Shown here: one piece after another, positions 8,601-55,075 of the stretch
How positions within the stretch are numbered: position 1 is the first letter of the stretch
Layout: each line of letters starts with the position of its first letter
IMG/VR virus record: IMGVR_UViG_3300012983_000037
Location: 35,870-99,869 of that record
Strand: one strand, 5' to 3'
DNA from: a virus
Lineage: Duplodnaviria > Caudoviricetes
Length of the DNA: 64,000 bases
Made by a program: the position numbers and the translations under genes
The notes under the pieces: generated by a model
What the model was told of the DNA's origin: nothing
Databases searched by the model: none
Seen by the model: the letters and a program-made list of their open reading frames with translations, nothing else

Positions 8601-11600
8601 GCAGTTGCAGGTAATATTTGGAGAAGTCCTATATTCTACCATACCATAGATAGAAGAAGACATATAGTAGAATCAAATAAAGCTGTTCAAGTTGTAACTG
8701 AACATCTAGAAAATAACCCTGAATTTGTAGAAGCTCTTAGTAGTACAGAGGCTGCACTTTCGTATATGAATAGATACTTTAATGCTCTTGTAAATGCAGA
8801 TGCTCTTGAGATGGAAGAGAATGAGTTTAGTATGTATGTAGCACAAGCTAATGTACTTGCAAAACTTAAAGGCACTACTGTAGGAGATGCATTCTTTAAA
8901 AGGATTAAAGAATTACAAGATGCTACCATAGATTCTGAACTTGGACAGCAGATTGCTGATAGGTATATTGAGCTGCTTGATGTTAGTGATAAATCGGAAT
9001 ATTTAGAAGATAAATCAAAGGCTCTTGAAGAAGCTAAGAAGAATATAAATAAGTTCGCAGAGGTTCAGAAAGGTGTAGTTGATATGCTATCTAAAATGGA
9101 TATAGATTATGGATATGCAGTAGATGATAGAACAAAAGAAGCTATTGCTTATACATATATGGCTCAAGAGAACAGGGAGAAGATGTTAGCTGAAAGAGAG
9201 GATATTATTAAAGAAGCTCTCACTAAGAAGTCTATTGCAAAAGATAAAACACCTATATCTGGATTATCAGAAGAGCAGAAGAATGCCGTTGCAAAATTTG
9301 GTACTTATGAGAATGCTGTAGCTGAATTGGAGAAATTAAAAGCTCAGAAGGCTAACAAATACCTTATACAGGAAGCTAAAGAGGCTGTTAAACTACTGAA
9401 GGAATTTAAAGATACTGAGACACCAGTACTTAATATAACTGAAATTCTTCAAATGTCACCATCTGAAAGAGCAGAATTCTTCAGGGGAAGAACTAAATTT
9501 TCAGAAAAACAAAAAGCTGTTATTAATAAATTTAAAGCTAGTGGTTTAGGTAGACATGTTCAAAGTGCAATAGAAGATGCTGGAAAAATTCAGGAAAAAC
9601 TAGATGCAAACCAATCTATTATAGATGGATTAGAAAGCAGTTCTGTTAACATATTTAGACTACAAAATACTGTATTAGCAAATAATTTAATAACAAGTGC
9701 TAGAAGAAAAGCAGGACATTTAAATACTGCTAATACATATGAGGAATTTAGTAAAGGTCTTGATGGATTAATTGAAACTGGAGTACTGACACCTGAGGAA
9801 AGTGCTATAATAGGAACCCATGTTATTACGGAAGATAAAGCTAAAGAGTTTTACAAAAAATATTCTAAAGAAATATCTGTAGCCCGTAGTAATAGAGTAA
9901 TGCTTCAAAAGCTAACTATTAAAGTATCAAATAAGAAAACCAAAGGTATTGTTATGGAGGTCCTAGAAAGGCTTAGTGGTCAGATGAGGAGTGAGGATGA
10001 TAGATATAAATTCAGTGATGCTGAGAATTTATTTACAGATGGTGGATTTATTGAGACTATTAAGACTAAGTATAAGGTTGATTGGAATACTGTAACAGAA
10101 AGAGAACAACATAGAATACTTTCAGAAGTTAAGAAGGGTATAGATGCTGCAAATAAAGCATTAACTAATAGACAGGATTTTAATACAAGATTTAATACAG
10201 GACATAAAGACAGACCTGCAAGAAGAAAGACTACTAAATATGATCTTTTTAATAGGGATGTATACGAAAGTGCTAAAGATATGTATGATATAATTTTTGG
10301 TAAGGTATCAAGAATTATTAAAGGTGAGAATGTTAAGCTAACACCTATGGAAGTATATCAATTAGCATGTTTGTTTGACGGTAATATGCTGACAGCACCT
10401 ATTGATGTAGATACTGTAGTAGTAAAAGGATTACCTACATCTTTAAAATCTGTGGAAGATCTTGCTACTTTAGCTAGAGTACTTGAAGGTAGAGCTGATA
10501 TATATGAAGATACTTACGATGTATTTGCACAGTTCTTAGATGGAGTAGTTAAGTGGATTGACATGTGCTCTGATACTGTTACACCATACCAAGTTATAGG
10601 TAGTGCAGCAGCGGAGTTAAATCCTTCAATGAAGGGACTGTTTGATAACAAGAGTAAGGAGGATGTTAAAAAATATGAAAGGGGTATAAATTTTAAAGAT
10701 GGTACTAGAGGTACAACTATTACAGTTATTCCTCCTGGAAATTCAGCACTTACAGAGGCTCAATCTAAATGGTATGAAGAAAATGGAGTAGAAGATAATA
10801 TTAAATACCTTCTAGACACTAGAAGTAGAAAAGATGTAAGACTCATATTAGTTAAGAACTCTGAATTGTATGAGGCTGAAGCTACTTACGATGATGATAA
10901 TCTTCCTTTGGCTGTAGCTGTAATAGTACCTAAAGGCACTAAAAATTCTGTAGAAGTTGACGGTGTAAACATTATATATGTAGGTATTGCAGGTAATAGT
11001 AGACAGGGTGTTTCTGAAAAAGCTAACATTCTAAATGCTATTAGAGATAATTTACTTGCTAATAATGACGATTCTAAATCTTGGGTAATTAGATACAGTG
11101 ATACAAATAATCCTGTAGAATTTGGTGGATGGAATTTTACATATCAAAAATACAAGGATGGTATAATTACAAATCTCAGAGAAAGAATACTAAGTAAATA
11201 CTCTCATCTAGAAGAGTCAGAAAGAGAGGAGGCTGCTTATAGAGACTTCTGTTTAAATACTGTAAAGGTAAATTGTAAGTATGATGTAGAAGATGGTGTA
11301 CAGGTATTTAAAATATCTTATACATGGAATGGTCAAGATTATACTGAAAAATTTAATGTTACAGAAGAAAAGGTAAAGGAACTTAATGAAAGTGGTAGAA
11401 CTGAGGATAAGTTCTCAATGATTGCTTATATTGAACCTAACAGTGCTAGTAATCAGCCTATATGTAACCTGTTAACATATGACTTCTATGATACATCTTA
11501 TTTAGGTAATAATATAGCAGAAGTATATGATTTAATACAGAAGGGTGAAATTAACATATTTAGTAAAGAATTTGAAGATTCACCTTTAGCATTAGTACAT

Positions 11601-13448
11601 AATGCTTTAGTTGCATGTGAAAGAGAGATATTTACAAATACTAAAGCTAAAGAAGCACTTAGGAAAAACATAAAATCATCAAATGATAAAGATGTTAGGG
11701 CAGCTAGTAAGTTTATAGAGGACAAAATAAATGGTATATTTAGAGGATTCTTAAACTTACAAAAACCTAGAGGTCAGGAGTCAAGATTAAAATTTGAGAC
11801 AGTAATAACAAAAGATGCAGAAGGAAAACCTGTATTAAATATTTATATTAAAGATTCCTACACAAATAGTGATATATATAATACAAAAATTTCAGTAGAT
11901 GCACTATTTGAAAAAGACTCTCAACAGAGAAGGACATTTTTACAGGATATACTTTTCAACACAATTCTTAAAGAAGAGAATGGAAGTTATACTTACAGAG
12001 TGTATAAAGATGATTTTGGAAAGGTTATACCTATAGTCAAGATGCAGGTTAACTATAAGATGTTTAACGGAACATTAGGATCTACAAAGGATTATAGAAA
12101 ACACATCTTTATGTCAGGTGTATTAAGCACAGATGCTAGTTGGGAATCTAGGAAGGTAGAAGGTGTTGAATCTAGACAGATAAGAGATAAAAAAGATAAA
12201 CCTACTACTGAGACTCAAAGAGATGGATCTGAAAAAGAAGTAGTAGAAAATACACCAACAATTGTAGAAGCTACTGAAGCTGTTCAAAAAGCTTTAGATA
12301 TTCTTTCTAACTTTAAGCATAAAGGAATTTCTTCTGTAGAAGAAGCTAGAAGTACTGGAGCACATGGTGTTACAACATTTATAAGTGATAGTAATAGTAA
12401 GACACTTACTAAAGAATCTCTTATAGCAACCGAAATAGGAACATCTTTAGACTTTGTTGTAAGAAAGTATATTGAATTAGGTGGTGATGCAGATGCTACA
12501 TTTAGTTTTATTTATGATACTTATTCTAAACATACTTTAAAAGGTAAAAGAGTATCACCAATTCAAGGTCTTGATTGGGGAATGCTTAGAAGTTTTATAG
12601 ATAATATAAAAACTTTAAAAGACACTCTTGAAGCTAGAGGTGAATTTATAGTGCCTTTTGATACTATATTTAGAGAAGTGCTGAAATCTGAAGGTGGTAA
12701 ATATGCTAATCTTACTGCTATTCCAGATATTATAACTATAGATTCTAAAGGTCAGCTGCATATATATGATATGAAATCATATTTAGCATCTGGAATTTCA
12801 GTAGGTAGATATAAAGGTATGAATACTGGAACTGAAGTGAAAGTAGCTAGAGGTGCTTACTTTGATGAAAATATTGGTAAGGGTGGTAAGTGGCAACAGC
12901 AAGTATCTTTATATGCCCATATAATAGAACAAGCTACTGGATTAAAAGTAGCATCAGTAGGTATCTTACCTATACCTGTAAGATATAAAACAGCTGGTGT
13001 TAATGTAACAGACACTAAAATTGAAGCTATTGGACTAACACCTGTGAGAGCTCTTACTACTACAACTGGAGACCAGTTTAAATTAGAAAGAGTACCTACA
13101 TTTACAAGTGATGCTATAAGAATGGATATTCTTAAGTTATCAGAAATTAAATCTTCTATGTGGATGGATAGTATGGTTTTCATAGAACCAGCTGAACCTA
13201 TTACTGATGATGAGGTACTTAATGATAATGAAGCAGCAGTTGAAGTTGCAGAAGAAACTAAAGTTCAAGAAGAAGAAGGTATTGAAGTAATAGTTGAAAA
13301 GATAGAAGAGGATCAACCTGGCAGTGATGATACAGGGCTTGATGACTTAGGAGGTACAGGAAGGTTTACTAGAAGAAGGAATGGTAGAGAGAGAAGGAAT
13401 TCTGAGGGAACTAATCCAAAAGCTCTTAAAATATTCAAATGCTTATAA
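5637..13448 (+). CDS. Giant virion cargo protein with C-terminal PD-(D/E)xK nuclease-like domain
   Basis: 2603 aa; hydrophobic Gly/Ala segments, ISEGFEE motif, IPDIITIDSKGQLHIYDMKS...QQQVSLY nuclease motif. Confidence 0.65.
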   Translation: MGNPQSNIKELEQKLGKYNNSLNNIKDFSAEDYYNYVDDNYNYFASTGEDPSVYYARKVFGEKTTEAGGTYDQEYAKKLTLDQLISAIDSVSNAGSIKPVDTENEEETVSNVLDDDSNTPAVPLVPVKDPIAEHVDSLEFDFTRPLFEEAFPEYSFLSGVDDKPITSIVERRYSGDPRSMNYIRDEVEFADSHHYAGDKYYDNPGEARYTLASLEATQTGKSINSTLSSKYGTSDSDILGMDVPDEMLQYVIKYSDLDWENLTPSEELVEMMNSEGRVQGGKPLTLAELKKIKKEYDKSKLYKEELATREKHKKQREAFGKLPGPEQDRIMREYTTLRDEYNKEALSQEELSYLFERINVEKATGTAEGKTADDYYSEILQKIMGGSYTTKVPMRDGSVKDVTIRINPDIYVKLYDELGSAVSQYYKDNYSNTDYNSAEYMAKLQEVAYFLANSALNGEEAAVGKLAEVLNPKVVTVHESLPWWQHALTFGAYTDSGWGHALLGFKKNIISTGAYLLGVLEGTGVAAYDLFGGDTPEYMKDLGFFERWGAYIGTSNMSEWGYGIQNTGLLPFHDQYDLALEHGVDVTRYDGHWAGFWNFMGDTGFSTAAAILSGGATALARWSTKQFSKLTAKAVAKEVMKQTTANTINKTAGILTTIGAATLVAAPEAIGNGLDVYHSVVNKGLDLLNKDIQKKVNNDFTLKEGYGISLNPEDLKNAFNDKEIYNYLKNNSSILDEMEEFYTFMQSDEFKEGYAKGEYTQEWINANYSILVEKLDKELNKAKEVWGDTKYSDFIKQSEQTIETNAWQSFAGAAAVDLVIVSVTDLFFSKVLAPSLGSLADRVGIPGRLNGRGRLLNTVITDGNPMVEATKYNMTGRFLTDVISEGFEELNTYATDETAKALGILDISNYFYNSNRAESDATLGYGIWENMSAVAGAFGDAWFSKEGWKCFGQGALGAFVGSLGGFAGSGTKMKADLQIATNGWEKFSAVAGNIWRSPIFYHTIDRRRHIVESNKAVQVVTEHLENNPEFVEALSSTEAALSYMNRYFNALVNADALEMEENEFSMYVAQANVLAKLKGTTVGDAFFKRIKELQDATIDSELGQQIADRYIELLDVSDKSEYLEDKSKALEEAKKNINKFAEVQKGVVDMLSKMDIDYGYAVDDRTKEAIAYTYMAQENREKMLAEREDIIKEALTKKSIAKDKTPISGLSEEQKNAVAKFGTYENAVAELEKLKAQKANKYLIQEAKEAVKLLKEFKDTETPVLNITEILQMSPSERAEFFRGRTKFSEKQKAVINKFKASGLGRHVQSAIEDAGKIQEKLDANQSIIDGLESSSVNIFRLQNTVLANNLITSARRKAGHLNTANTYEEFSKGLDGLIETGVLTPEESAIIGTHVITEDKAKEFYKKYSKEISVARSNRVMLQKLTIKVSNKKTKGIVMEVLERLSGQMRSEDDRYKFSDAENLFTDGGFIETIKTKYKVDWNTVTEREQHRILSEVKKGIDAANKALTNRQDFNTRFNTGHKDRPARRKTTKYDLFNRDVYESAKDMYDIIFGKVSRIIKGENVKLTPMEVYQLACLFDGNMLTAPIDVDTVVVKGLPTSLKSVEDLATLARVLEGRADIYEDTYDVFAQFLDGVVKWIDMCSDTVTPYQVIGSAAAELNPSMKGLFDNKSKEDVKKYERGINFKDGTRGTTITVIPPGNSALTEAQSKWYEENGVEDNIKYLLDTRSRKDVRLILVKNSELYEAEATYDDDNLPLAVAVIVPKGTKNSVEVDGVNIIYVGIAGNSRQGVSEKANILNAIRDNLLANNDDSKSWVIRYSDTNNPVEFGGWNFTYQKYKDGIITNLRERILSKYSHLEESEREEAAYRDFCLNTVKVNCKYDVEDGVQVFKISYTWNGQDYTEKFNVTEEKVKELNESGRTEDKFSMIAYIEPNSASNQPICNLLTYDFYDTSYLGNNIAEVYDLIQKGEINIFSKEFEDSPLALVHNALVACEREIFTNTKAKEALRKNIKSSNDKDVRAASKFIEDKINGIFRGFLNLQKPRGQESRLKFETVITKDAEGKPVLNIYIKDSYTNSDIYNTKISVDALFEKDSQQRRTFLQDILFNTILKEENGSYTYRVYKDDFGKVIPIVKMQVNYKMFNGTLGSTKDYRKHIFMSGVLSTDASWESRKVEGVESRQIRDKKDKPTTETQRDGSEKEVVENTPTIVEATEAVQKALDILSNFKHKGISSVEEARSTGAHGVTTFISDSNSKTLTKESLIATEIGTSLDFVVRKYIELGGDADATFSFIYDTYSKHTLKGKRVSPIQGLDWGMLRSFIDNIKTLKDTLEARGEFIVPFDTIFREVLKSEGGKYANLTAIPDIITIDSKGQLHIYDMKSYLASGISVGRYKGMNTGTEVKVARGAYFDENIGKGGKWQQQVSLYAHIIEQATGLKVASVGILPIPVRYKTAGVNVTDTKIEAIGLTPVRALTTTTGDQFKLERVPTFTSDAIRMDILKLSEIKSSMWMDSMVFIEPAEPITDDEVLNDNEAAVEVAEETKVQEEEGIEVIVEKIEEDQPGSDDTGLDDLGGTGRFTRRRNGRERRNSEGTNPKALKIFKCL

Positions 13449-13449
13449 T

Positions 13450-13483
13450 AAAAAAAAGAGTGGGAAATCCCCACTCTTTTTTT
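13450..13483. terminator. Bidirectional intrinsic terminator
   Basis: A-tract, GAGTGGG-AAATC-CCCACTC, T-tract, between convergent giant genes. Confidence 0.9.
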
Positions 13484-16400
13484 ATTGTCCTTTCATCTTC
13501 ATGAAATTAGATCTTCTATCAGCAACTTTAAAAGCATCTTGAACCTGATAGCCAGTTCTTCCTTCTATTTCAGAGCTATCCATATTATCAAGCTCTTCTT
13601 GTGTAGGAGGAAGTATATATCCGTAATCATCAGTTTCTAAGAATACCTTATTTAAAAAGAAATTATAAAACTTACTTCTAACTTTATTACTAAAATTAGG
13701 ATCATCAGTATGCGTTGCTAAATCTGCTATATCCATAATACCGTCTAGAACCATCATAGCATCATTATATCTGAAACCTATAGTTCCTATGTCTTCCACA
13801 TTCTGAATTAGAGATGTCATACCTTGAAGCTCTTCAGCATTCTTCTTAGCAAAATAATACATAATACCAGTCATTTTATATGCTGCAGACTCAGTATCAT
13901 AACCAATACCTTTGTATACTTGACTAAGTAGATGTCTTGATAATAACTCCATATCCTGTGCTCTTGTAAAATTAAACCGTTTATCTTTTGAATAAACTGT
14001 TGTCCAATCAAATTCACCGTTTTCAGATTTCGAGCTATCAGAATTATACATCATTCTAGAAGTCTCATTATCTTCAAAGTTATGGTAGCTAAGAAATTCA
14101 TTATAACTCATTTTAACTTTAGTACTACCATCTTTCATAACTGGAGCCATATCTTTATAGTCAATTAGAAGCTCTATATGACTAGCTACATCAGAACTAA
14201 TACCGTTATTAGTAGCAGCTTTTGATAATGCTTCTTTAGGTTCTAAACCTTCAAGTAGTAAATCAGAATACTCAGATAAGAATGTAGAAAATAACTCTAA
14301 AGAGTGTGCTGGATCCTTTTCAAAATCGTCAATACTTTGTATAACTCCTAACAAGTAATCAGATTTAGTTAAATAATTTGATAAGCTCTCTTTAATTTTA
14401 TCATTATTAATAACGGGTTTGTTAAGAGCATCAAATATTATATGAGTCTTTAGGCATCCTCCTGTTATCCTATCCATTGTATCATATAAATACTGATCTA
14501 TGTCAAAATCCATTATATTAAACTTACTACTAACTTTACTAAAATCTCCTGTAGAGTATCCTAACTGTTTAGCAGCTTCTTCAGGTTTTCTAGGTGCGAA
14601 CATACCTAATATTACATATGCAAAGAACCAGAATAATAAGTCATTTCCAAATTCATACATTCTCTTAATCATTTGGTCTGTATAACCACCTTTCTTAAGA
14701 ACTTGTTGTACTCTAGGTATTTTTGTAAACTGTTGAAGAACAGGAAGATTAAGAGCAGCTATACTTAACCATAAGACTACAGATTTTTTCTTTCTATCCA
14801 AAGTATTAGCATCATACATAGGCATCATAAGATTTAACCAAGAAAATGCTACAGTCCTCATTTTAGATGGTACATACTCCTCTTTAAGAACATCGTATCC
14901 ACTATTCCAGTTTCTGTTAGCATCACCAATCATATAACCAGTGTATAACGCCATACTTTTCAACATAAAGTCTTCTTGAATATGAGCTTTAACATCAGAA
15001 TAATAAGTACCTTGAGTCTCTACATTTTCTGATAATAAGCTATCTGACACAGAGAAAAGATCACTTTCCTTCCATAACATTCCGTCAATAGCTTCTTTAA
15101 TTAATGTTTGAGCATCTGTTAAAGAAATAAAGTTTCCATACTCATCCATTAATGAAATACCCATCTCATTAAAAACTTTATATAAGTTATCAGTAAAAGT
15201 ATTATTAGATAGTAAATCAACTAAATTCCTATATATACCTGAACCTAGCTTTTCAGGGTCTGAATTCTCTTCGATAGCTAAGTTAATTTTATCTAAGAAC
15301 TTTTTAAGAAAAAGATACTTAACAGTATCCTCTTTTCTTCTTAAGAATGAGTTAGATATATAAAATCCTTCCTGTGTATTACCTTCTTCATCCTTTTTAC
15401 TAAAATGGTATATGCTTCTTAAAGACTTAGTTTTGCTCTTCCCATTAATCATATATTCAATAGAGTCATAGTCAGAATCTTCAAGTATACTGTCTATACT
15501 ACCATATCTCTTTTCTATTTCAGCTATTGTATCACTAACTTCACTACCATTATAGTGATCTAGCATAGCAAGATATACAGCCTCTTGTCCTACAGCATCT
15601 CCTAAAGCATACAGCTCCATAGGCTTATCAACTAAGATATTTCTGATAATAGGATTATTCCTATCTTCCCATATAACCCTTCTATTATAAGCTCCACTAA
15701 TATGATGAAGAATCATCTTATCCCTTCTTCTGCCTCTACCTAAAAATGTATTACCAATAAGTCTGAAGAATACAGTCCTTGGAAGCCTTCTTAAATACCC
15801 CCAGAAACTATAATGCTTAGATATTACAGCGTTTCTCAAGTAGTTAGTACTTGATTGAAAGAAGTTACTAATCATACTCTTCACACTCAACCATATAGTA
15901 CCCATGACAAATATACTCTGAGTAAGATTCTTAACTACTCCCAAAGCTTTCCTAGCTAACTTCTCGTCTCTACTAGAGAAAGGATTGTCTTCGCCATAGA
16001 ATAGCCTATTTAAATGAGTATCTAAGATACCTTGATAAGCTTTTACATTATCCTCATCTTCCTGAGATTTTCTAATAGATACTCTATGTTCAAGAGCGTA
16101 CTTTGTGGCATACAATCTATTAACATTACTCTTTAACTCACTGTACCTTACAGCCATTACAGTGTAATCCTTTAAGGTTTTAACAATATTAGATGAAGGA
16201 TTAGCTATTCTTTTTACTCCATATATAGGAAGCTTAGCAAAAGATTCATCAGCCTCTGCTAATGCTGATGCATACATACTAGAGCCTTCAATACCTAATT
16301 CGAAATCACTTTCAGATTCTGTTAAACCACCATTAAGAGCCTTCTTAAAAGAGTAATCAAAAAGATGTTTCTTAGTTGAAATCTGAGGAATTCTATTACC

Positions 16401-18815
16401 TCTAACTAAAGATCTTCCACTTGAATCAGTGAGAAGAGAGTCAACCATACTTTTATATTCAGTAAGTGCTTTTAGTAAAACAAGTTGCTTCTTAGCAGTT
16501 TCATCACCTTCATCAGCAGCTCTTCTAATTTCCTCATACTGAGAACTAACATATACACCATCTTCATAGTCAGGATTTAAAACCCTTAAACCTGTTTTTG
16601 GATCTTCAATCCAAGATTCTTCTTCGAATATTCTAAGTTTATCACTCTCTTCTATTTGTTTATTAATATAAACTCTTTCACTTCTTTTAGTTTTGAACTC
16701 TTCTTTATGATCTTTTATATATTCTACACACTCAGCAACAATCTCTTTTATAATCTTATGTCTCAGTTCTTCATATTTCCAAGTATTACAAGGAGATATG
16801 AAATTTCCCATAAGTTTACCTTTATCATCCCTCTCTATAAGATCAGACATATCACTAGAATAGCCTAGTTCAGATGCAAGCCTTTCTATAGTATTCATCT
16901 TTGCTTGAAAATCTGTTTCAACCCTTCTATTAATATTTCTATTAATGTCTTTTGTCCATTTTCTAATGTAAGAAACTGCTGTGTCTTTAAGTTTAGTTGG
17001 AATTCTAAAGAGCCTTCCAAGCCAACCATCTGAATAATATATATAGTTTATTAAATCTTTTGTTTGTATTTCTTCATCTCCTATATATAATCCAAAATGT
17101 TTCTTTTTATTCTCTGTAGCATCTTCAATAATCTCCTCTTCAGAATATGTATCATCTTTTTTCTTTTTCTTGCTCTTTTTATCTTTCTTAGGGAAGAATA
17201 CAAAACTCATTTTACCCTTTAATATGATACTGTCTTTACCTGCAATCTCTATAAGTAATTCATTACCAATTTTTCTACACTCATCTAAAACACACTTTTC
17301 AGCAGCTTCAATTATTAATCTAAAATTAGTTGAAGATTCAGATAATCTACCAGAGCCTTTTAGAAATGTAGAACCTGTATAAGTATCTAAAAATTCTCGT
17401 AATCCAGGATTTTCTTTAGCAACTCTTTCTAAGGCTGACTCAATTGTAGACAATGCATCTGCATAGCTAGCTAAAGACCTTACAGCAGCATAAACATCTT
17501 CATCATACACACCACTATTATAATCAGGGCTGCCATATAATTCTTGAAGACCAGCATATACATTCTCCATTTCATCTATAAGTACAATAGCCATCTCCTG
17601 AAGTAAATAACCAGCTGTATTAAAATCCATTTCATAATCAGAAGGTGATATATTAGCATTTAAAATATCCTGTATCTTCTGATTATTCATTAAGATTTTA
17701 TATAATTCAGTACTGGTTGTGTGTAATCTATTTCTAAGATTCTTTATTGCTATTTTAGCTGTAACAATTGCATTGTTAATAGTATGTGTAGAATCTACTG
17801 AATATAAAGTCATAGGAACATTTAAAGCAGTATCTAAATTAGATTTTCCAGACATAAACTCATTTGCTATTTGTTTTGCCATAAGCTTAACTTCCATTCT
17901 TTTAGCTAAGAGCGACTCTGGTTTAATCTTATTAACTATACTAAATATAAATCCTTTAACTCTATTTAGAAATCCACCAAATCTATATACATTTGCACCT
18001 TTAAATTGTTTAGCAAGTATTCTACCTGCAGCTTCATAGACATTAGTATGTAAGCCCGCATCAATTTCCTCTTGTGTAAATATACCCATAGCTAATACAA
18101 CCTCTTCATCCCTGCATAGCTCTATAAGTCTAGAAACTTGAGACGAATCATGTAAAGCTGCAATAGCAAAGTGAGCTGCCTCTTCTTTAAGAGCATCTGC
18201 CATAGAATCTCCTCTAGCTAAAGTAATCAGGTGATACATACCATCTGCTGCTTTAGTAGGGTTTTCAGTAGAATATTTACCGTTATATGGAGAGCCTTCC
18301 TCCATAAAATCAACTCTTACACCTACTTTATTTAATTCATCAACAATCATTGTCTGAATTCCCTGTTCCTCAAGTACCTTCTCAAAAGCTACTTGATTTT
18401 CAGAAGTGTTTTTTACTACACTTAACCTATACTTTTTACCTTCTTTAGTTAGAATTGCTAAATAATCAGAGCCATATTCTGATCTATTAAACTCTCTAGC
18501 TTTTTGAAGACCTTCAGTATAGTCATAGACTCCACTACCAATATCCCTATTAAGCTTTTTGATAATAGTTTCACCAGTAGGATCTAGTTGAGCAACTTTG
18601 ATGAGAGAATGGAGAGTAATTTCCCCATTCTCATCAAAAGTTACATTTTCTTTTATACTGTCTAGAAATTCTTGGTCAGTAGCTACAAAGTAATCTCTCT
18701 TAGCAGCCTCCCTATCATTGTTATGATAGTCAAGTAACTCTCTAAATAAGATACTATCAACTTCCTGACCTTCTTTGTTTCTTACAGTAGGAATAATGTT
18801 ACAATAATTAGCCAT
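13482..18815 (-). CDS. Giant virion/RNAP-associated cargo protein with degenerate zincin-like motif
   Basis: About 1777 aa from likely ATG 18815 (just after the RNAP stop); LKEEAAHF resembles a HExxH variant; hydrophobic C-terminal segments. Confidence 0.55.
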   Translation of the reverse strand: MANYCNIIPTVRNKEGQEVDSILFRELLDYHNNDREAAKRDYFVATDQEFLDSIKENVTFDENGEITLHSLIKVAQLDPTGETIIKKLNRDIGSGVYDYTEGLQKAREFNRSEYGSDYLAILTKEGKKYRLSVVKNTSENQVAFEKVLEEQGIQTMIVDELNKVGVRVDFMEEGSPYNGKYSTENPTKAADGMYHLITLARGDSMADALKEEAAHFAIAALHDSSQVSRLIELCRDEEVVLAMGIFTQEEIDAGLHTNVYEAAGRILAKQFKGANVYRFGGFLNRVKGFIFSIVNKIKPESLLAKRMEVKLMAKQIANEFMSGKSNLDTALNVPMTLYSVDSTHTINNAIVTAKIAIKNLRNRLHTTSTELYKILMNNQKIQDILNANISPSDYEMDFNTAGYLLQEMAIVLIDEMENVYAGLQELYGSPDYNSGVYDEDVYAAVRSLASYADALSTIESALERVAKENPGLREFLDTYTGSTFLKGSGRLSESSTNFRLIIEAAEKCVLDECRKIGNELLIEIAGKDSIILKGKMSFVFFPKKDKKSKKKKKDDTYSEEEIIEDATENKKKHFGLYIGDEEIQTKDLINYIYYSDGWLGRLFRIPTKLKDTAVSYIRKWTKDINRNINRRVETDFQAKMNTIERLASELGYSSDMSDLIERDDKGKLMGNFISPCNTWKYEELRHKIIKEIVAECVEYIKDHKEEFKTKRSERVYINKQIEESDKLRIFEEESWIEDPKTGLRVLNPDYEDGVYVSSQYEEIRRAADEGDETAKKQLVLLKALTEYKSMVDSLLTDSSGRSLVRGNRIPQISTKKHLFDYSFKKALNGGLTESESDFELGIEGSSMYASALAEADESFAKLPIYGVKRIANPSSNIVKTLKDYTVMAVRYSELKSNVNRLYATKYALEHRVSIRKSQEDEDNVKAYQGILDTHLNRLFYGEDNPFSSRDEKLARKALGVVKNLTQSIFVMGTIWLSVKSMISNFFQSSTNYLRNAVISKHYSFWGYLRRLPRTVFFRLIGNTFLGRGRRRDKMILHHISGAYNRRVIWEDRNNPIIRNILVDKPMELYALGDAVGQEAVYLAMLDHYNGSEVSDTIAEIEKRYGSIDSILEDSDYDSIEYMINGKSKTKSLRSIYHFSKKDEEGNTQEGFYISNSFLRRKEDTVKYLFLKKFLDKINLAIEENSDPEKLGSGIYRNLVDLLSNNTFTDNLYKVFNEMGISLMDEYGNFISLTDAQTLIKEAIDGMLWKESDLFSVSDSLLSENVETQGTYYSDVKAHIQEDFMLKSMALYTGYMIGDANRNWNSGYDVLKEEYVPSKMRTVAFSWLNLMMPMYDANTLDRKKKSVVLWLSIAALNLPVLQQFTKIPRVQQVLKKGGYTDQMIKRMYEFGNDLLFWFFAYVILGMFAPRKPEEAAKQLGYSTGDFSKVSSKFNIMDFDIDQYLYDTMDRITGGCLKTHIIFDALNKPVINNDKIKESLSNYLTKSDYLLGVIQSIDDFEKDPAHSLELFSTFLSEYSDLLLEGLEPKEALSKAATNNGISSDVASHIELLIDYKDMAPVMKDGSTKVKMSYNEFLSYHNFEDNETSRMMYNSDSSKSENGEFDWTTVYSKDKRFNFTRAQDMELLSRHLLSQVYKGIGYDTESAAYKMTGIMYYFAKKNAEELQGMTSLIQNVEDIGTIGFRYNDAMMVLDGIMDIADLATHTDDPNFSNKVRSKFYNFFLNKVFLETDDYGYILPPTQEELDNMDSSEIEGRTGYQVQDAFKVADRRSNFMKMKGQ

Positions 18816-18817
18816 GT

Positions 18818-21800
18818 TTAACAAACACCTTTTTCTTTACTTTTCTTTTCTATATCTGTTGTTCTTCTTAATCTTTCAAATACACTAGAAGGACCTGTAG
18901 GCTCTGAAGATTCATCTTCAACTTCTCCTATATGATCGTCAGTATATACCTCAGAAACTGAGAACGCACTTCCTGAAGACTTTACATCTCCGTAAATATA
19001 ACCACCAGAACCTTTAGTTATAACATCTGAAAATGCTGCAACTTTAGAATCTATGTTATTTATTACTTCCTCATATATAAGAGAAGTCCTTTTTCCTACA
19101 TCACAAGAATACTCATTTTGACCTCCTTTAAATCCTTGAAGTTCATAGAGCCTTCCGTCTATTGTGATATAAGGCATAGCGATTCTTCTATCTCCACCTC
19201 CATCTTTAATAGTTTTGACAATTAGTTTTAAACCATCTTTACCAACAGTAACTACATTCTTTTCAGTACTTTCAGTAGGCACAAATAATGATTTAGTAGC
19301 CTCTGTGACTTTGAATACATAATTACTATTATCAGTATGTTGCTTTATAAATTCGCCGAAGACATTGAATATATTAACACCTTCCATAATTTTACTTATA
19401 GATGTTGTTTCATCTGATTCAACTCTTAGCTCATCCATAAACTTGATATATCCAATTCCAGTGGTATAATCAACTAAACAAGCCTCCAATACATTCATAG
19501 GAACAGAAGATAAACTAAAGTTAGATGATTGAGAAAGACCATTAAGATAGTACATATGTAAGAATAATGCTTTTGCAAAATTCTGTAATGCTACATTCTT
19601 AACAACCTCTCCATACTCATTCTCATACTCAGCATTGAATAAGGTTTGCCACTCATTATATATAGTAGCTTTTTGCTCCTTAGTAAGGTTGAAAGGGATA
19701 CTTAAATTGTATACCTCATACTCATGAGGTGTTCTTCTACCATCTTCATCAATAGTATATTCTGTAACAGTAGATATTTTAATGTTATTAAACAGTTCTG
19801 TTCTTTTAAGTGCAGTTAAATCATCTTCACTTAAAGCTTCCACAAACTGATCAAAACCTCTAACATATCTATCAAAGTTAGTTATACCATCAACTTCAGC
19901 AAAAGGATTAAAATCACCATTCAAATCTTTAATAATAAGTCTAGTTATTTCACTAGCCATATCATTATAAACATCCTTACTTACACTTCCATACCTACTC
20001 CATAATCTAGCTGTAGCAAAAGCATCACTAAAAGTCTTCTCATGAAAAGGTGTATATTGATCTATCAAAGTATCAAACATATCTGCAGTAAGATTATACA
20101 TAATAACCTCAAAAGCATATGGATGATCTGCAAACATTTCAAATAAACCTTGTCTATCCTCCAGTGAATCTATTTGCATTTTTACTCTAGGCATAACATC
20201 TCCAGAATACTCATCACTAACAGTGATAGCAATACTACTATCTTTAACTCTATGAGACTGCCTTCTATCAGCATCTGCAAAATGAGAACCTATATCAGTT
20301 TTTACTGAATTTGAAGAAGTGTTTCTAGATTCCTGTACTAAAGCAGCAAAATCCTCTTTAACTTTCATAAGTTCATAGAATACTTTAACTACTTCAGATT
20401 GAGAAGTTTTGTAATGTTCAGTACTACCAGCCGCTTTGGTAATGTTATATGCTAAAGCCTCTCTAGTCATATGTTTAAGATTAACAGGTTTAGCTTTCTT
20501 ACCTGTAAGTTTACTCATACTTTCCATGCCATGACTCTTAAGTACTATATCAAGTGCTGTATAGAGACTTGTAATACCATCTCTTTCCATAAGAGTAGTA
20601 GCTTCTTTAATAATAGGCTGATTAAACAAAAGACCAATATCTTTAGTATCATAACCCATTCTTACAAGAACTACAGCAGCATCTGCAGTTACAGTATTAA
20701 GATTTAAGTATGCTAAAACAGGTTCCTTTACTGCATCCACTGATGCTGCAAGAAGCTCTGCTAATCTCTGGCTAGTTGTCTTACCCATTGATTCAACTAC
20801 AAGCATATCTCTTCCTGCATTTTCATCAACAGCTTTATATACATCACCATCTTTAACAACTTTACTTCCAAATACTATAGCTCTAGGTCCAACCATTCTC
20901 ATACTCTTCAGTTTAGATTGAATAAAGTAGTTAGCAGAAGCATTAGCAAATATACCAATAAGTTTACCAGCTGCTTGATTCAATTTATTATATGCTATAG
21001 AAGTATAAGGATCGTCGAATAGCAGATTTTCAGAAGTTTCAGGAGTTGTTTCTATAACTGATTTCTTAGATAATTCACTAAGATCAACAGTGTGAGAACT
21101 ATTATCTACCTGAGGACTATCAGAATCTAATTCTTGGATTATAGTAGCAAATTTAGCATCAATAATAGTATCTTCAAAACCACCTGCAGTAAATCTAGAT
21201 TGTGCTGTTTCAGGATCTGATAATCTAGCTTGCATAATATCAAGTATTAAATTATCAATATCACTCTTTTGTACATCACCAGAAAAGACCTTTTCAAAGT
21301 TTATAGAACCATCTGCATTAAAAGCATCTAATACTGTAAATTTAGTAGATTTAATAGTACTTTCATCAGCATATCTAGAGAATACATCATTCTTATTCTC
21401 TTTAATCTTACCGAGTTTAACAGCTCTATCCCAGAACATATTCAAAGGAATAACCTTAGGTATTTCAAGACCTCTCTTTTCATACTTAGATTTTAAACCT
21501 TCAAGATATTCTGTAGGTGCTGTATCTCTTAACTCTGTAAGAATAGATGCCCACTCTGGGTTTTCTTCAAATACTTTATCCCATACCTTTTTAGTATCAT
21601 ACTCACTAATGGTTGAATCAAAGCTTCTTCTCACAAGATAAAGCTTATCAATATCAAAGTCAAAACCAGCTCTTGTAGTACAGATATTAGGAAGCTGAAT
21701 ATAGTTAGCTCCTGACTTAGGACAACATCTTTTAATTCTAAGATTAAGCATTGAGTACTCTCTCTCAGTTGGAATTCTATATGCAACCAATTCAAGAATA

Positions 21801-24800
21801 CCAGGATATTCTTCCTCTATCTTAGGTTTATAAACCCTACCATCTTCTGTTACATAAGCACGATAATTATTATATTCAGGATCAGACTCTTCTAGTATTC
21901 TACCTACTTTAAAAGTACCATCCGGATTACAATAATCATCATACTCCAAATCAACTTCATCGCCAAACTTATCTGTAACTTTAAAAGCAAAAGGCATTAC
22001 TGCCTCACACTTTATAGGCATATCTGTTTCAGGATCAGTTTCAAACTGTAGTCCCTCATCCAAGTAGTTAAGAGTAATATTAGCTCCTAATGAAGATGCT
22101 TGTACAATATTACCTCCGTGAATCTTCTGCTTTGATACAGTAGACTTAAAAAGACTAATGATTGTAGCAAAAGTATCCCTTTGAAGCATTGGATCCCAGA
22201 ATGGGAGGTTTCTAGCCATTCTATCAATACTTGATAAATCACTTCTATCATTGTTAAGAATGTTCTTTGATAACTCCTTTAAAAGTCTATGAGGGTCTGA
22301 AATTAATCTTTTATACTCTTTATAACTTTTAAAGAAATTAGCACTTGTAAGAGCATTCCATAATGTAATAAGTTGTTTACCTGTAATTTTAACTTTTCTA
22401 CCTCCTAAGGTATATTCATATTCAGATTCTGCATTAATACCTCCAAGGATAATCTTTCTTCCTTGAGTACCTACAAGAGTAGGTGCAACAGAATGGTCAG
22501 GAACATTAGTCTGAATTAAATATGTCTTTAAAGGACATTCATGAATAACTCCACTAAAGACTCTATTTATCTCATTACCTTTGTCATCTACTCCTACAGT
22601 TGTATAAGAAGTAATAGCTTTTCCTCTAGTATCTGTAGCTATCTGAGCATTAAGCATATCAATAAGTGGTATAGCCCCACCCTCTGATGTAGATAGATTT
22701 TCTACAGCCCTTGATTTAAACTCTTTAGATCTTCTTTGTTCGCCTCTTGTAGGATTATCGACATAGTTACCATTCTCATCAACTCCTGGGATAATATTAC
22801 CCTCAGCATCAATATACTGACCACTTGAATTGACTTTATATTGAATATCAATCTCACCAAACACTCCTTTCTTTCCACACTTATCTGAACATATCATATC
22901 AATTCCATGCTCTTCCATAAACTGTCCCATAACTCTTAGTGCACTTCCCTTAGGGTATAATGCAGGAATTATAGGAATTTCAGCATACTTGTGTTGGAAT
23001 GGGATTGCAGCAGACTTACCTGTTGAACCATCAGTAGAGAATTGTTCAATTCCATTACATACAGGTTTTCTAGGTTGAAATACTACTGCTAATTCAGCAA
23101 GTTGAGCTACTTTAGCTGCAAGTTTTCCTTCAACTATTTCTTTCTTTCTATATGCTTCTCTATTATCTTCTAAGCTTCCTTCTTTAAGTGTAAACTTCTC
23201 AAAACTCTCAAGCTCTTTCTCTATAGCATAGATTTCTTCAGAGATTTTTTGTACTTCATGATAAGCATCTTCCATCTCTTGAGTCCAGACCTTACCACAG
23301 AATGATAAGCCTATCTTTCTCCAAGAAGAAAAGCTTCTCCAACCCTGACCATCAGATATAGTATTTTGTTTATATACACCTTTATAATCATAATCAGTAC
23401 CTTCAAATATCTTAGAAAGCATATCTTCATCCTGCTCAGAAAGAGCAGGTTTAATGTCATAAACATATACAACCTTTTGTTTAGGGTTTGAAGGGTCTTC
23501 CCATACAGGATTCATAGTCTTAGGATCAATAGCATCAGTAACAAGTTGAATACCATTTGTTAACTCTACCTTATTTCTCTTCTGCTGTTCTTTAGAATTA
23601 GCAAAGAACTTTGGTGAAATATCAACAATAGCAGTCTGATTCATTTGGGAGAATCTAAAGTTAAAATAAAAATCTCTCATTTTAGCTTTAAACGAATCTC
23701 TTAACTCAGGACTTATAGATAACTCCTCATCAGTATAAGATTCTATACCTTTACCAGAGATGTTAAATGTACCACTACTAATACCTAATTCTGCAAGTCT
23801 TACTTCATAGAAGTACTCAAATTCAGAATTTAGACACTCTCTAATCAAATCTTTAATTAGATTTTCGTCATAAGAGTCAGCAACTTCATCTAATCTCTTA
23901 GCCCAATAACCTGGTTCAGAAGGTTTCCATACACCATCTTCTTTTATATGAGTTCTAAAGTTAGGATTGAAGAATCCACAGAATCCCATAAAATTAGGGT
24001 TCTTAGTGAATGTTTCTTTACCATTACCGCTAACAGGTAATCCCATATTATTAAGCTCAGTAGCCTTAAGGGATGTTCCTTTATCTACAGCGTAGAAGTC
24101 AAATATACCATCAATAATCTCATTAATATCATAATGGAGAGATGTTACACCTCTAAGTGCTAAAGTATCACCAGTAATGAATGTAGGAATCATTATAGTT
24201 CTAATTCTTTCACTATCAAGAATAATACCATCACTATCTTTATAGCTAGCTTTTGATGAATTCCTAACATAATAGTGAGTATTTTTACTTTCTTCTCCTA
24301 TGAATCCAGCTATTTCAGAAGCATCGTCAACAAAGACTACTTTACTTCCTGTGTAGAGGTTATTAAAATACATAGAAAGTATAGAAAGCATATGACCTTT
24401 ATCAGAAATGTTCTCAAAATCTATATTATCCATTCCTAGATTTCTAGACACTCTAAACCTCCTTCTAAAAGATCTTCCAGAATCAAGATTTAGAGAATCA
24501 TATAGATCTTGAATCCATCTAACTTTAAATCTATAATTGTATATAGGGTTACCAGACTCGTCAACATCTTCAGTAATCTCACATAATGAAGAATCACCAG
24601 CATAGGTATCAATAAGAATCTGCTTTAATGTTTCAGCATCTGAAAAGTTACACTCCTTAATAAACTGAGTAAGCTGTGACATTTGAACATTAGCAGAAAG
24701 TGTTTTTGTCTTCTCGCCTGAATATGTTACCATACCTGAAAGTCCTGCTCCATACTCATCAGTAGCTTCTACAATTTCTAGGATTCTTGTAAATGCTAAC

Positions 24801-26491
24801 CTGCCTTTGTTTAATTCACCATCTTCAGATTCCTGGAAAAGTGATATAGCAGGTCTGTCTTTTCTACCATAATCATTTAAGAATTTACCTAAATCCTTCA
24901 AAGATTCAAGTAAAGTATGAAGCTGCAAAGAATCAACAACAATAGATTGGATTTCATTATCATTCTTCTGTATTCCAAAGTATTGAAGAAGATGGTCAAC
25001 AGCACGAATCTTCTGCTCTGTACTCTTCTTATTAACAAAGTCAGTAATTGTAACTATAGAATTATCTTCTCCTCTTAGAATCAGTCTAACAAAGTCATTG
25101 TTAAATGATGCAATGTTCTTTCTGTTAGGTACTAACATTCCTTTTTCCTCAGATGGTACAAAAACATTTGTATTCACCTCTTTCGGTCCGAAATCTTTTC
25201 TAGCCATCCTAGAAAGAAAAGAAGATACTCTTCTAGCGTTTCCTGATGCATTGAGATGGATCTCTGAAAATGTACCATCTTTATGTGACTCTGTATAGTA
25301 ATAGTGAAGATAGTATCTTTTAAATGCAGTCATAAAAGTAGTCTGAACCATAGGTCTTTTAAGAAGCTCATCATACAACTCTGCATATCTAGGGTCTTCA
25401 CTTAATTTACTCATCATATCACTAAGAGTGACACAACTATTAATAAGTCTAAGAAGTCTTCTAGCCTCAACTCTAGGATTTACAGTAATAGGAAAATAGT
25501 CAGTAACAATATTACCATTAGCATCTTTAACTTCTGTAGTTAAAAGCATTGACTTCCTCTTAGGAACTTCTCTATGTCTGTATTTTATCTTACCATCTTC
25601 TTCATATACTTCATTAACAGCTTTTGTATCAGGAATTTGACCTAAGATATTATTAATAATAGATGAAAGTGAACCAGAAGGGTCAATAGAATCCATCATA
25701 ATAGTCCATCTTTCTCTCTCTTCAGTTTCAAAGTCTATTTCAGTTTCCTCATCAACATGTATACTATCCTCATCATCTTCCTTATATACAATATTACTTT
25801 CTGGATTAAAGGTTCTTCCAAAAAGTTTCTTAATTTCAGCACTGTTTATAATACAAAGCTCTGTGAAGAATCCTGGATTAGAAGCTCTATCATCAGGATC
25901 TCCTAAAATTCTATATAGGAAATCTAACTTCTGTTGAAGCTCCTCCATACTCTCCTCTATATCATCATAACCAGCCTCTTTATCAGCTATATCTGCAAGA
26001 GTGTTAGCGAGTGCATCAGTATACACTTGTCTGATATATGAGAAAAGTCTGCTTATAGTGTACTTATCAATAAGTTCACCACCAGTCCATCCTTTATCAG
26101 CTGCTAACTGTCTTAAGATTCCTACAAATTCACATTTGAAGGATTCTCGTTCTTCAGAAGAAAAGAATTGAGTAGTAACTGCATAAGCATATGCAGCTTT
26201 AGATCCTAAAGCCTCTCTTAGACTATCAAAGTCTTCCGCTGAGTCAACTCTAGCTCTATTAAATTCATTAATGAATATAGAAAGCCTTTTACCCATTATG
26301 TTTAGGTACTCACTTTTTTGTGCCTCGTTTAGACTAAAGTAATAGTCGTCACTAATTATAGGATTACCTAACCTAGTAGCCTCTTCGTTAAAAGCTTCAA
26401 TATATACATTAATACCTCTGTCTGTTAAGCCCATAGCATTTGCAAGCGGTTTACAAATTCTGAACACTGGGCATCCTGCTTTAGTACTCAT
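18818..26491 (-). CDS. crAss-like virion RNA polymerase (single-chain, double-psi beta-barrel type)
   Basis: 2557 aa; AYRIPTE and catalytic GFDFDIDKL (DxDxD) motifs, SDGQG, LAASVDAVKEP. Confidence 0.9.
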   Translation of the reverse strand: MSTKAGCPVFRICKPLANAMGLTDRGINVYIEAFNEEATRLGNPIISDDYYFSLNEAQKSEYLNIMGKRLSIFINEFNRARVDSAEDFDSLREALGSKAAYAYAVTTQFFSSEERESFKCEFVGILRQLAADKGWTGGELIDKYTISRLFSYIRQVYTDALANTLADIADKEAGYDDIEESMEELQQKLDFLYRILGDPDDRASNPGFFTELCIINSAEIKKLFGRTFNPESNIVYKEDDEDSIHVDEETEIDFETEERERWTIMMDSIDPSGSLSSIINNILGQIPDTKAVNEVYEEDGKIKYRHREVPKRKSMLLTTEVKDANGNIVTDYFPITVNPRVEARRLLRLINSCVTLSDMMSKLSEDPRYAELYDELLKRPMVQTTFMTAFKRYYLHYYYTESHKDGTFSEIHLNASGNARRVSSFLSRMARKDFGPKEVNTNVFVPSEEKGMLVPNRKNIASFNNDFVRLILRGEDNSIVTITDFVNKKSTEQKIRAVDHLLQYFGIQKNDNEIQSIVVDSLQLHTLLESLKDLGKFLNDYGRKDRPAISLFQESEDGELNKGRLAFTRILEIVEATDEYGAGLSGMVTYSGEKTKTLSANVQMSQLTQFIKECNFSDAETLKQILIDTYAGDSSLCEITEDVDESGNPIYNYRFKVRWIQDLYDSLNLDSGRSFRRRFRVSRNLGMDNIDFENISDKGHMLSILSMYFNNLYTGSKVVFVDDASEIAGFIGEESKNTHYYVRNSSKASYKDSDGIILDSERIRTIMIPTFITGDTLALRGVTSLHYDINEIIDGIFDFYAVDKGTSLKATELNNMGLPVSGNGKETFTKNPNFMGFCGFFNPNFRTHIKEDGVWKPSEPGYWAKRLDEVADSYDENLIKDLIRECLNSEFEYFYEVRLAELGISSGTFNISGKGIESYTDEELSISPELRDSFKAKMRDFYFNFRFSQMNQTAIVDISPKFFANSKEQQKRNKVELTNGIQLVTDAIDPKTMNPVWEDPSNPKQKVVYVYDIKPALSEQDEDMLSKIFEGTDYDYKGVYKQNTISDGQGWRSFSSWRKIGLSFCGKVWTQEMEDAYHEVQKISEEIYAIEKELESFEKFTLKEGSLEDNREAYRKKEIVEGKLAAKVAQLAELAVVFQPRKPVCNGIEQFSTDGSTGKSAAIPFQHKYAEIPIIPALYPKGSALRVMGQFMEEHGIDMICSDKCGKKGVFGEIDIQYKVNSSGQYIDAEGNIIPGVDENGNYVDNPTRGEQRRSKEFKSRAVENLSTSEGGAIPLIDMLNAQIATDTRGKAITSYTTVGVDDKGNEINRVFSGVIHECPLKTYLIQTNVPDHSVAPTLVGTQGRKIILGGINAESEYEYTLGGRKVKITGKQLITLWNALTSANFFKSYKEYKRLISDPHRLLKELSKNILNNDRSDLSSIDRMARNLPFWDPMLQRDTFATIISLFKSTVSKQKIHGGNIVQASSLGANITLNYLDEGLQFETDPETDMPIKCEAVMPFAFKVTDKFGDEVDLEYDDYCNPDGTFKVGRILEESDPEYNNYRAYVTEDGRVYKPKIEEEYPGILELVAYRIPTEREYSMLNLRIKRCCPKSGANYIQLPNICTTRAGFDFDIDKLYLVRRSFDSTISEYDTKKVWDKVFEENPEWASILTELRDTAPTEYLEGLKSKYEKRGLEIPKVIPLNMFWDRAVKLGKIKENKNDVFSRYADESTIKSTKFTVLDAFNADGSINFEKVFSGDVQKSDIDNLILDIMQARLSDPETAQSRFTAGGFEDTIIDAKFATIIQELDSDSPQVDNSSHTVDLSELSKKSVIETTPETSENLLFDDPYTSIAYNKLNQAAGKLIGIFANASANYFIQSKLKSMRMVGPRAIVFGSKVVKDGDVYKAVDENAGRDMLVVESMGKTTSQRLAELLAASVDAVKEPVLAYLNLNTVTADAAVVLVRMGYDTKDIGLLFNQPIIKEATTLMERDGITSLYTALDIVLKSHGMESMSKLTGKKAKPVNLKHMTREALAYNITKAAGSTEHYKTSQSEVVKVFYELMKVKEDFAALVQESRNTSSNSVKTDIGSHFADADRRQSHRVKDSSIAITVSDEYSGDVMPRVKMQIDSLEDRQGLFEMFADHPYAFEVIMYNLTADMFDTLIDQYTPFHEKTFSDAFATARLWSRYGSVSKDVYNDMASEITRLIIKDLNGDFNPFAEVDGITNFDRYVRGFDQFVEALSEDDLTALKRTELFNNIKISTVTEYTIDEDGRRTPHEYEVYNLSIPFNLTKEQKATIYNEWQTLFNAEYENEYGEVVKNVALQNFAKALFLHMYYLNGLSQSSNFSLSSVPMNVLEACLVDYTTGIGYIKFMDELRVESDETTSISKIMEGVNIFNVFGEFIKQHTDNSNYVFKVTEATKSLFVPTESTEKNVVTVGKDGLKLIVKTIKDGGGDRRIAMPYITIDGRLYELQGFKGGQNEYSCDVGKRTSLIYEEVINNIDSKVAAFSDVITKGSGGYIYGDVKSSGSAFSVSEVYTDDHIGEVEDESSEPTGPSSVFERLRRTTDIEKKSKEKGVC

Positions 26492-27949: not shown

Positions 27950-30009
<2,060 letters not shown>

Positions 30010-54932: not shown

Positions 54933-55075
54933 ATAATAGAGAAAGTGTTTAGAGAATTAAAGAAATAAAGATTACAAGTCTTTCGCATGACCATTCTGCT
55001 ATTTCGTGAAAATTGTCACAAAAGTTGGAGTCGAACCAACATAAATCGATGAACCTCTAAACTGACTACTATTAT
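54933..55075 (-). ncRNA. Y-RNA-like RNA 3 with circularly permuted tRNA (T arm, closed acceptor, D arm, anticodon UGU)
   Basis: ATAATAG/CTATTAT and GTTTAGAG/CTCTAAAC stems enclose GTTGG-TTCGACT-CCAAC, TTTTGTGA-loop-TCACGAAA, TAGCAGAATGGTCATGC, AAAGA-CTTGTAA-TCTTT. Confidence 0.85.

Follow-up and report, generated by a model that had tools for sequence, protein, structure and literature searches.

Y RNAs of the YrlA type are defined by a GNCGAAN0-1G motif, by V, T, acceptor-stem (AS) and D stem-loops and by covariation between positions 15 and 48, with a Ro60 gene on the same strand within about 4 kilobases (kb) as a further criterion (Chen et al. 2014, PMC4201824). They lack an anticodon loop, the stem formed by the RNA's own ends being the equivalent of the anticodon stem (Wang et al. 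2018, bioRxiv 10.1101/312249). In Mycobacterium smegmatis, a YrlA with an acceptor stem of 7 base pairs (bp) is cleaved by RNase P and acquires CCA in vivo, and Yrn1 of Deinococcus radiodurans has been modelled with a possible 'anticodon arm' (PMC4201824). Permuted tRNA genes are known from Cyanidioschyzon merolae and some archaea (Soma 2007 and Chan 2011, as cited in Wang et al. 2018), and an evolutionary proposal derives the Y RNAs from a dimeric tRNA (Sim and Wolin 2018, in the summary of Wang et al. 2018). Here we analyse a stretch of 64,000 nucleotides (nt) from a Caudoviricetes phage (positions 35,870 to 99,869 of IMG/VR record IMGVR_UViG_3300012983_000037; hereafter the window), which carries a four-arm RNA element at 55075-54933 on the minus strand. 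Judging from sequence and gene neighbourhood, this element is probably a YrlA-type Y RNA gene, encoding the small-RNA partner of the phage's own Ro60. YrlA-type Y RNAs beside Ro60 are already known; what is new is a wiring through the variable loop in an RNA that has all four tRNA arms.

Anatomy of the four-arm element

The source phage genome is complete, measuring 99.9 kb with terminal repeats and 33% G+C. A tRNA cluster on the minus strand (56180-55113) leads into the element, and a gap of 34 nt separates the element's 3' end from the open reading frame (ORF) of a Ro60 homologue (54898-53264, minus strand). Inspection of the minus strand confirmed the element as a real feature and found the arms and coordinates given by an earlier sequence-only reading of this DNA to be exact. 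The parts follow one another, all on the minus strand, in the order outer stem, inner stem, UUCAUCGA motif, T arm, closed 7-bp acceptor hairpin, U8-A9, D arm, G26, an anticodon-like arm with a 5-bp stem and a 7-nt loop, and the closing strands. The 5' strand of the outer stem (AUAAUAG, 55069-55075) forms 7 bp with 54939-54933 and is followed by the motif UAGUCA (55063-55068), in which the first U is bulged, A-G pairs with C-U at 54941-54940 and UCA remains as a loop. The inner stem opens with GUUUAGAGG (55054-55062), which forms 9 bp with 54955-54947, and leads through the UUCAUCGA motif and a UUUAU linker ending at U48 (55041-55053) into the T arm (GUUGG-UUCGACU-CCAAC, 55024-55040). The closed acceptor hairpin (55002-55023) consists of the 3' strand UUUUGUG (55023-55017), the loop ACAAUUUU (55016-55009) and the 5' strand CACGAAA (55008-55002); its stem has 7 bp, or 8 bp if an A:U at the loop is counted. 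U8 and A9 (55001-55000) are followed by the D arm (GCA(G)-AAUGGUC-(A)UGC, 54999-54985), which has a 3-bp stem and a G13/A22 mismatch, by G26 (54984) and by the anticodon-like arm (AAAGA-CUUGUAA-UCUUU, 54967-54983). The 3' linker AUUUCUUUAAU (54956-54966), variable in length and sequence in alignment A5, runs from this arm to the inner stem, and the closing strands at 54933-54955 comprise the inner-stem strand UCUCUAAAC, the loop ACUUU, C-U and the outer-stem strand CUAUUAU. The closing helix can be summarised as 7 bp, a 1-nt bulge, 2 bp, a 3x5 internal loop and 9 bp; together with the UUCAUCGA motif it is called the handle below.

Conservation and covariation of the arms

Ro60-based searches for loci and pattern scans of the DNA in IMG/VR supplied the sequences for a covariance model of the core (R1), which found 64 distinct elements in phage contigs (alignment A4; L- and G-numbers such as L013 and G001 are labels of retrieved loci and genomes). 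Alignment A4 is fitted to R1, and RNAalifold on an unfitted MAFFT alignment served as an independent check. Across the 64 homologues, standard pairs occupy 98.7% of cells, against 31-47% when the partners are slid by 1-3 columns, and 19 of the 20 pairs in the four helices have changed on both sides. The T stem is 100% paired, with four of its five pairs covarying; the acceptor stem keeps its 7 bp in 64/64, is 96% paired and covaries at 7/7 pairs; all three pairs of the D stem covary; and the anticodon-like helix is 99.7% paired, with 5/5 pairs covarying. The unfitted alignment (43 full-length sequences) recovers the outer stem, the T arm, the acceptor stem and the anticodon-like arm, with compensatory changes in 23 of 25 consensus pairs. 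The T-acceptor-D-anticodon order, first proposed from a single sequence, is real and conserved across the family.

Given the AT-rich DNA, support for the closing stem was drawn from column counts, RNAalifold, and duplex energies of cognate and non-cognate strands. The outer helix is 81% paired, with 10/10 pairs changed on both sides (column counts, 43 homologues). UAGYRA is nearly invariant in alignment A5, as are UUCU(C) on the 3' side and the handle motif, which reads UUACUUCG in most homologues and UUCAUCGA in the window, and the A:U and G:C pairs of the UAGUCA motif are kept in 39/43 and 36/43, respectively. The inner stem differs in sequence but keeps its pairing and is poorly aligned by MAFFT; its cognate duplexes average -6.1 kcal/mol versus -2.4 kcal/mol for non-cognate ones. 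RNAalifold found no conserved pairing that would join the linkers on either side of the tRNA core.

The nucleotides of the tRNA core are retained as well, including U8 (62/64), A14 (64/64), G18-G19 (64/64), purine 26 (63/64) and T54-T55-C56-G57-A58 (64/64). The tertiary Levitt pair 15:48 covaries, being A:U in 46, G:C in 16 and another combination in 2 of the 64. This covariation identifies nucleotide 48 as the base directly 5' of the T stem, and the closing stem therefore exits within the variable region, between the anticodon-like arm and nucleotide 48, which is where the entry of the Y stem had been placed on inspection.

These data bear on an alternative in which the element has no function as an RNA of its own and is either what is left of a junction between tandem tRNA genes or the leader at the 5' end of the Ro60 mRNA. 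The element does stand last in a tRNA cluster, true junctions between tandem tRNAs match the pattern and the model weakly (L007, L009/L016 and L328), and a promoter-like site overlaps the element's 3' end. In real tandem junctions, however, the acceptor strands are unpaired, whereas here they pair in 64/64 and covary, and the closing stems covary too. This covariation excludes a decayed tandem-tRNA junction, and since Ro60 lies upstream of the element in 17/26 loci, the element is not generally a Ro60 leader; taken as a whole, the alternative is scarcely credible. The promoter-like site itself (TAAACA, 18 nt, TATACT; 54951-54922, minus strand) overlaps the element's 3' strand a short way ahead of the Ro60 start, and promoter-like sites in the region are no more numerous than expected by chance.

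A permuted tRNA mimic with a free triplet

In its native order, the element receives no ARAGORN call, and the Rfam tRNA model (RF00005) at relaxed thresholds gives 26.3 bits, under the 29-bit threshold, in an alignment that covers the acceptor-5'/D/anticodon part and skips the T arm. Standard scanners thus overlook it, as had been anticipated. We re-permuted the element in silico by cutting it in the acceptor loop and rejoining it at the variable region, which was the check proposed with the sequence-only reading. At default thresholds, ARAGORN then called tRNA-Thr(tgt) in 27/30 junction choices, against 0/200 shuffled controls, and it likewise called 10/10 re-permuted homologues tested as tRNA. 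The single-sequence fold is only modestly better than that of shuffles (z = -2.2).

The anticodon-like loop has 7 nt in 62/64 homologues, with U33 in 59/62 and purine 37 in 61/62. These 62 seven-nucleotide loops hold 25 kinds of triplet (UGU 10, UGA 7, and GCA, GAA and CAU 5 each). The triplet differs even between L013 (CUUGUAA) and L010 (CUUGAAA), whose D arms and anticodon stems are near-identical, and within a second close pair, L137 (CUUAUAA) and L163 (CUCAUAA). The shape of the loop is selected, and the codon that it would read is not. The designation tRNA-Thr(UGU), with which the element had been introduced, is no more than a label: ARAGORN does assign Thr(tgt) to the re-permuted form, but the triplet is not conserved, and its drift makes decoding unlikely.

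The acceptor loop begins with N-CCA in 14/64 homologues, where about one would be expected by chance, and with N-CC in 19/64. The N-CCA is often followed by a U- or A-rich spacer (L154 GCCAUUUUU, L075 UCCAUUUUUU, L348 GCCAAAAUA), and such loops hint that some members of the family form genuine 3' ends. The loop in the window has only A73-C74 and no CCA. Searches of the phage for RtcB and for a CCA-adding enzyme found neither, so any processing would use host enzymes.

It is conceivable, then, that the element is a working permuted or split tRNA, whose loop is opened by RNase P and 3' processing and whose CCA is completed before the molecule is charged and decodes ACA (Thr), the two pieces being held together by the acceptor stem and by the closing stem as a long open variable arm. 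Such a tRNA would account for a 7-bp acceptor stem that is followed by a discriminator base in every one of the 64, for the N-CCA loops with spacers that are often U-rich as between tandem tRNA genes, for the canonical anticodon loop (7 nt, U33, purine 37) and the full set of tertiary-core nucleotides, and for the acceptance of the re-permuted form by ARAGORN, and M. smegmatis YrlA provides a precedent for RNase P cleavage with CCA addition (PMC4201824). Against it, the triplet changes freely even between close relatives, the window's own loop stops short of CCA, the phage encodes neither a CCA-adding enzyme nor the RtcB ligase, and the tight linkage to Ro60 together with the conserved handle fits a ribonucleoprotein scaffold better than a decoder. 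The acceptor pairs C1-G72 and A2-U71 are moreover unlike the known identity pairs of Escherichia coli threonyl-tRNA synthetase, which also counts against a decoding tRNA. We consider this explanation very unlikely.

Linkage to Ro60 and the case for a Y RNA

The presumed protein partner is the 544-residue product of the Ro60 ORF, which matches Pfam vWA_Ro60 (2.9e-6) and TROVE (1e-3) as well as phrog_850, annotated 'RNA-binding protein' (1.4e-31). A profile built from 8 phage homologues finds Ro60 of Thermus phage phiLo (9KOP, 3e-21), Xenopus Ro60 (1YVP, 8e-16), D. radiodurans Rsr (2NVO, 4e-7) and also human Ro60. The window-type handle, with an outer stem, UAGYRA facing UUCU(C), an inner stem and UUACUUCG/UUCAUCGA, is present in 43 sequences. 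Ro60 occurs in 33/38 records carrying this handle and in 13/13 of those that are at least 90% complete. Where the element and Ro60 lie in one retrieved locus, they are on the same strand in 26/26 cases and at most 4.2 kb apart. The connection to YrlA and Ro60 that had been suggested for the window, where the Ro60 gene starts 34 nt downstream, is thus borne out by the handle-bearing records.

From this anatomy and linkage, we infer how the RNA may work. The handle, comprising the outer stem, the UAGUCA/ACUUUCU internal loop, the inner stem and the UUCAUCGA motif, would be the docking site for Ro60; the motif resembles the CGAA/GNCGAA Ro60-contact motif of Y RNAs (PMC4201824; PMC12135203). On this handle the RNA would bear a circularly permuted, complete tRNA mimic made of the T arm, the closed acceptor stem, the D arm and the anticodon-like arm, and by analogy with other Ro60-Y RNA particles this tRNA-shaped module would be the effector end. 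With Ro60 on the handle, a full L-shape including the anticodon loop could be presented to tRNA-recognising proteins of the host or the phage. An acceptor stem of exactly 7 bp makes cleavage by RNase P possible, and by analogy with M. smegmatis YrlA it is plausible that RNase P opens the closed acceptor loop, a suggestion that the enrichment of N-CCA also supports.

Several observations weigh against assigning the element to the YrlA type. Run on the region and on the entire 99.9-kb phage, the Rfam YrlA model (RF02553) has no match at E<=10. The GNCGAAN0-1G motif is absent as such: the sequence is UUCAUCGAU in the window and UUACUUCG(A/U) in most homologues, and these share a CGA core but do not follow the published pattern. 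Ro60 is absent from the retrieved locus in 16/42 homologues. Finally, the same four-arm core is found on a second type of handle in 21 sequences, a single 8-10-bp stem NNNUACUUA/UAAGUANNN followed by CAA, and this version sits in phages without Ro60 (0/9 complete genomes), which implies that the tRNA-like module can work without Ro60.

Copies on the second handle were seen at 6397-6481 and 6656-6742 on the minus strand of L008, at 343-428, 742-832 and 892-976 on the plus strand of L011, and further in L022, L034, L075, L080, L085 and others, with several copies per phage; some of these copies have no anticodon arm. In second-handle phages, ACUUACAA also precedes normal-order tRNA-like units and non-tRNA inserts. 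The occurrence of ACUUACAA before such varied inserts makes it look like a parallel modular handle with another partner or a processing enzyme.

Other units on the same handle

The neighbourhood of the window's Ro60 gene holds three more units (55361-55221, 55206-55084 and 53256-53135, all on the minus strand) with the shared handle of outer stem, UAGUMA, inner stem and UUACWUCG. One carries a complete tRNA-like cloverleaf in normal order with an 8-nt anticodon loop (ARAGORN 'ttgg'), another a tRNA-Cys-like body with a very short acceptor, and one, past the Ro60 stop codon, a non-tRNA insert. A near-identical tRNA-like unit with an 8-nt loop was seen at 6157-6231 in the Ro60-less phage L008. 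The UUCAUCGA/UUACUUCG stretch is common to units U1, U2 and U4 of the window, whose inserts are non-permuted, and for this reason we assign it to the Ro-type handle and not to the tRNA variable loop.

The related phage L137 carries at least four Y-like units on the same handle (1800-1960, 3700-3800, 3835-3995 and 3974-4150), comprising two canonical T-AS-D YrlA-like units, one normal-order tRNA-like unit and one four-arm permuted unit. The canonical units lie directly beside the four-arm unit and match RF02553 weakly, at 36-38 bits against a gathering threshold of 69 bits. In genome G001, a four-arm unit (L013) likewise coexists with a unit lacking the extra arm (L173). A common handle for canonical and four-arm units argues that the four-arm RNA is a sibling of YrlA on a shared Ro60 handle.

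Distribution and genomic surroundings

A blastn comparison with GenBank phages returned only short tRNA-like matches and no close cultured relative, and the Ro60 proteins of GenBank phages are at most 32% identical to that of the window. In three GenBank phage records, those of Gordonia phage Neville, Vibrio phage phiTY18 and an uncultured 635-kb phage, model R1 detected no four-arm element in the neighbourhood of Ro60. A scan of prokaryotes (one genome per species) with a handle-plus-T-loop pattern returned 120 loci, and the 100 that were screened held one true four-arm match, L348; the element is therefore essentially phage-borne. L328, also considered as a four-arm element, was rejected as a tandem-tRNA junction. 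In every case seen, the element lies within a phage tRNA island, and the variant characterises a large group of tRNA-rich phages that are low in G+C and mostly uncultured.

The same RNA islands contain tmRNA genes (L013, 3467-3794, plus strand; L008, 10336-10723, minus strand), that of L013 lying directly upstream of the four-arm element. Suppressor-type tRNAs were seen in related phages with the anticodons cta (L001, 7557-7628; L005, 4692-4767), tta (L010, 1259-1330) and tca (L004, 316-388; also L080, L085 and L030); their coverage of all three stop codons suggests stop-codon recoding in this phage group. Elsewhere in the window are a GroEL-type chaperonin gene (28184-29722, minus strand; phrog_5725, 9e-128) and three giant ORFs of 1780-2603 residues without a PHROG match (5637-13448, plus strand; 13482-18824 and 18818-26491, minus strand).

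Discussion

The four-arm RNA shares with YrlA a Ro60 neighbour on the same strand (34 nt away in the window, within 4.2 kb in the homologues), paired 5' and 3' ends that form a handle, the order of T arm, closed acceptor-like stem and D arm, the tRNA core nucleotides with compensatory A15:U48 and G15:C48, a YUAY-like UUAC after the handle in most homologues, and an occurrence in phages as well as bacteria. It differs from YrlA in possessing a separate, covarying anticodon arm of 5 bp and 7 nt 3' of the D arm, in a handle that exits at the variable-loop position and not at the anticodon-stem position, in the absence of the V stem-loop, and in its CGA-containing motif. That YrlA has no anticodon arm, which the sequence-only reading had taken as established, agrees with Wang et al. 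(2018, bioRxiv 10.1101/312249).

Yrn1 of D. radiodurans and Yrl1 and Yrl2 of phage phiLo are also comparable. Ro60 binds them, their handle is built as stem-bulge-stem, and they carry a motif of the CGA(A) type (PMC4201824; PMC12135203). The arm modelled in Yrn1 is placed between its T and D elements with a loop of 6 nt, Yrn1 has no full D arm, and the passages of PMC12135203 consulted give no tRNA-like description of the phiLo Yrls; the four-arm RNA, by contrast, possesses each of the four canonical arms. According to Wang et al. (2018), permuted tRNA genes of the C. merolae type similarly place the 3' half upstream of the 5' half, join the acceptor ends by a loop and yield transcripts whose ends pair, and their precursors are circularised at a bulge-helix-bulge by a splicing endonuclease and a ligase to become decoding tRNAs. 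The closing helix described here is no bulge-helix-bulge, as it does not show two 3-nt bulges around 4 bp; the element is carried by bacteria-type phages, its triplet is free to vary, and its presumed partner is Ro60. In the literature searched, which did not include two key reviews, neither a Y RNA possessing an entire anticodon arm nor permuted tRNA-like genes in phages are described.

The arrangement also invites comparison with the dimeric-tRNA model. The T arm and acceptor 3' strand would derive from the first tRNA, followed in 14/64 homologues by N-CCA and a spacer, and the acceptor 5' strand, D arm and anticodon arm from the second. Wang et al. (2018) describe no extant RNA that keeps the anticodon arm of the second tRNA. 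The four-arm architecture fits the model more literally than any YrlA does, and the family would be an intermediate form.

How the tRNA mimic might be put to use can be considered within the same anatomy. As a functional refinement of the Y RNA reading, the mimic could serve in a Ro60 particle as a decoy that titrates or reports host defences directed at tRNA, such as anticodon nucleases or modification enzymes. A conserved loop shape with a hypervariable triplet would suit such a decoy, as would the location in phage tRNA islands in every case seen and the presence of several differently wired tRNA mimics on one handle within one phage, and bacterial Ro60 operons have been linked to tRNA damage and repair (PMC7824862; PMC7790460). 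The phage, however, has no RtcB, and neutral drift could explain the variation of the triplet equally well; we therefore regard the decoy as an improbable refinement. A broader scenario, to which we attach a small but somewhat larger chance, is that RNase P, together with 3' trimming or completion of the CCA, opens the acceptor loop in infected cells to give a complete but two-piece, CCA-ended tRNA whose variable arm is the Ro60-bound handle. The product would be a Ro60 particle that can be charged or that baits enzymes, possibly as a decoy or sensor for host enzymes attacking the anticodon loop, with the drifting triplet tracking their targets.

Within the Y RNA reading, which we prefer, the finding has several implications for this family and the phages that carry it. 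Published arguments on YrlA effectors rest on a mimic that reaches no further than the tRNA elbow, without an anticodon loop; a widespread variant with a canonical anticodon arm, conserved in loop geometry but free in its triplet, widens the candidate effectors to proteins that read this arm. Four-arm and three-arm units, sometimes in a single phage genome, offer a natural comparison with and without the arm, and of all extant forms the four-arm RNA comes nearest to the dimeric tRNA proposed as the ancestor of Y RNAs. Phages without Ro60 carry the core on a second handle; the module is thus portable, and other proteins may serve as its partners. As four-arm genes are invisible to tRNA scanners and Rfam, the 'tRNA islands' of phages are under-annotated.
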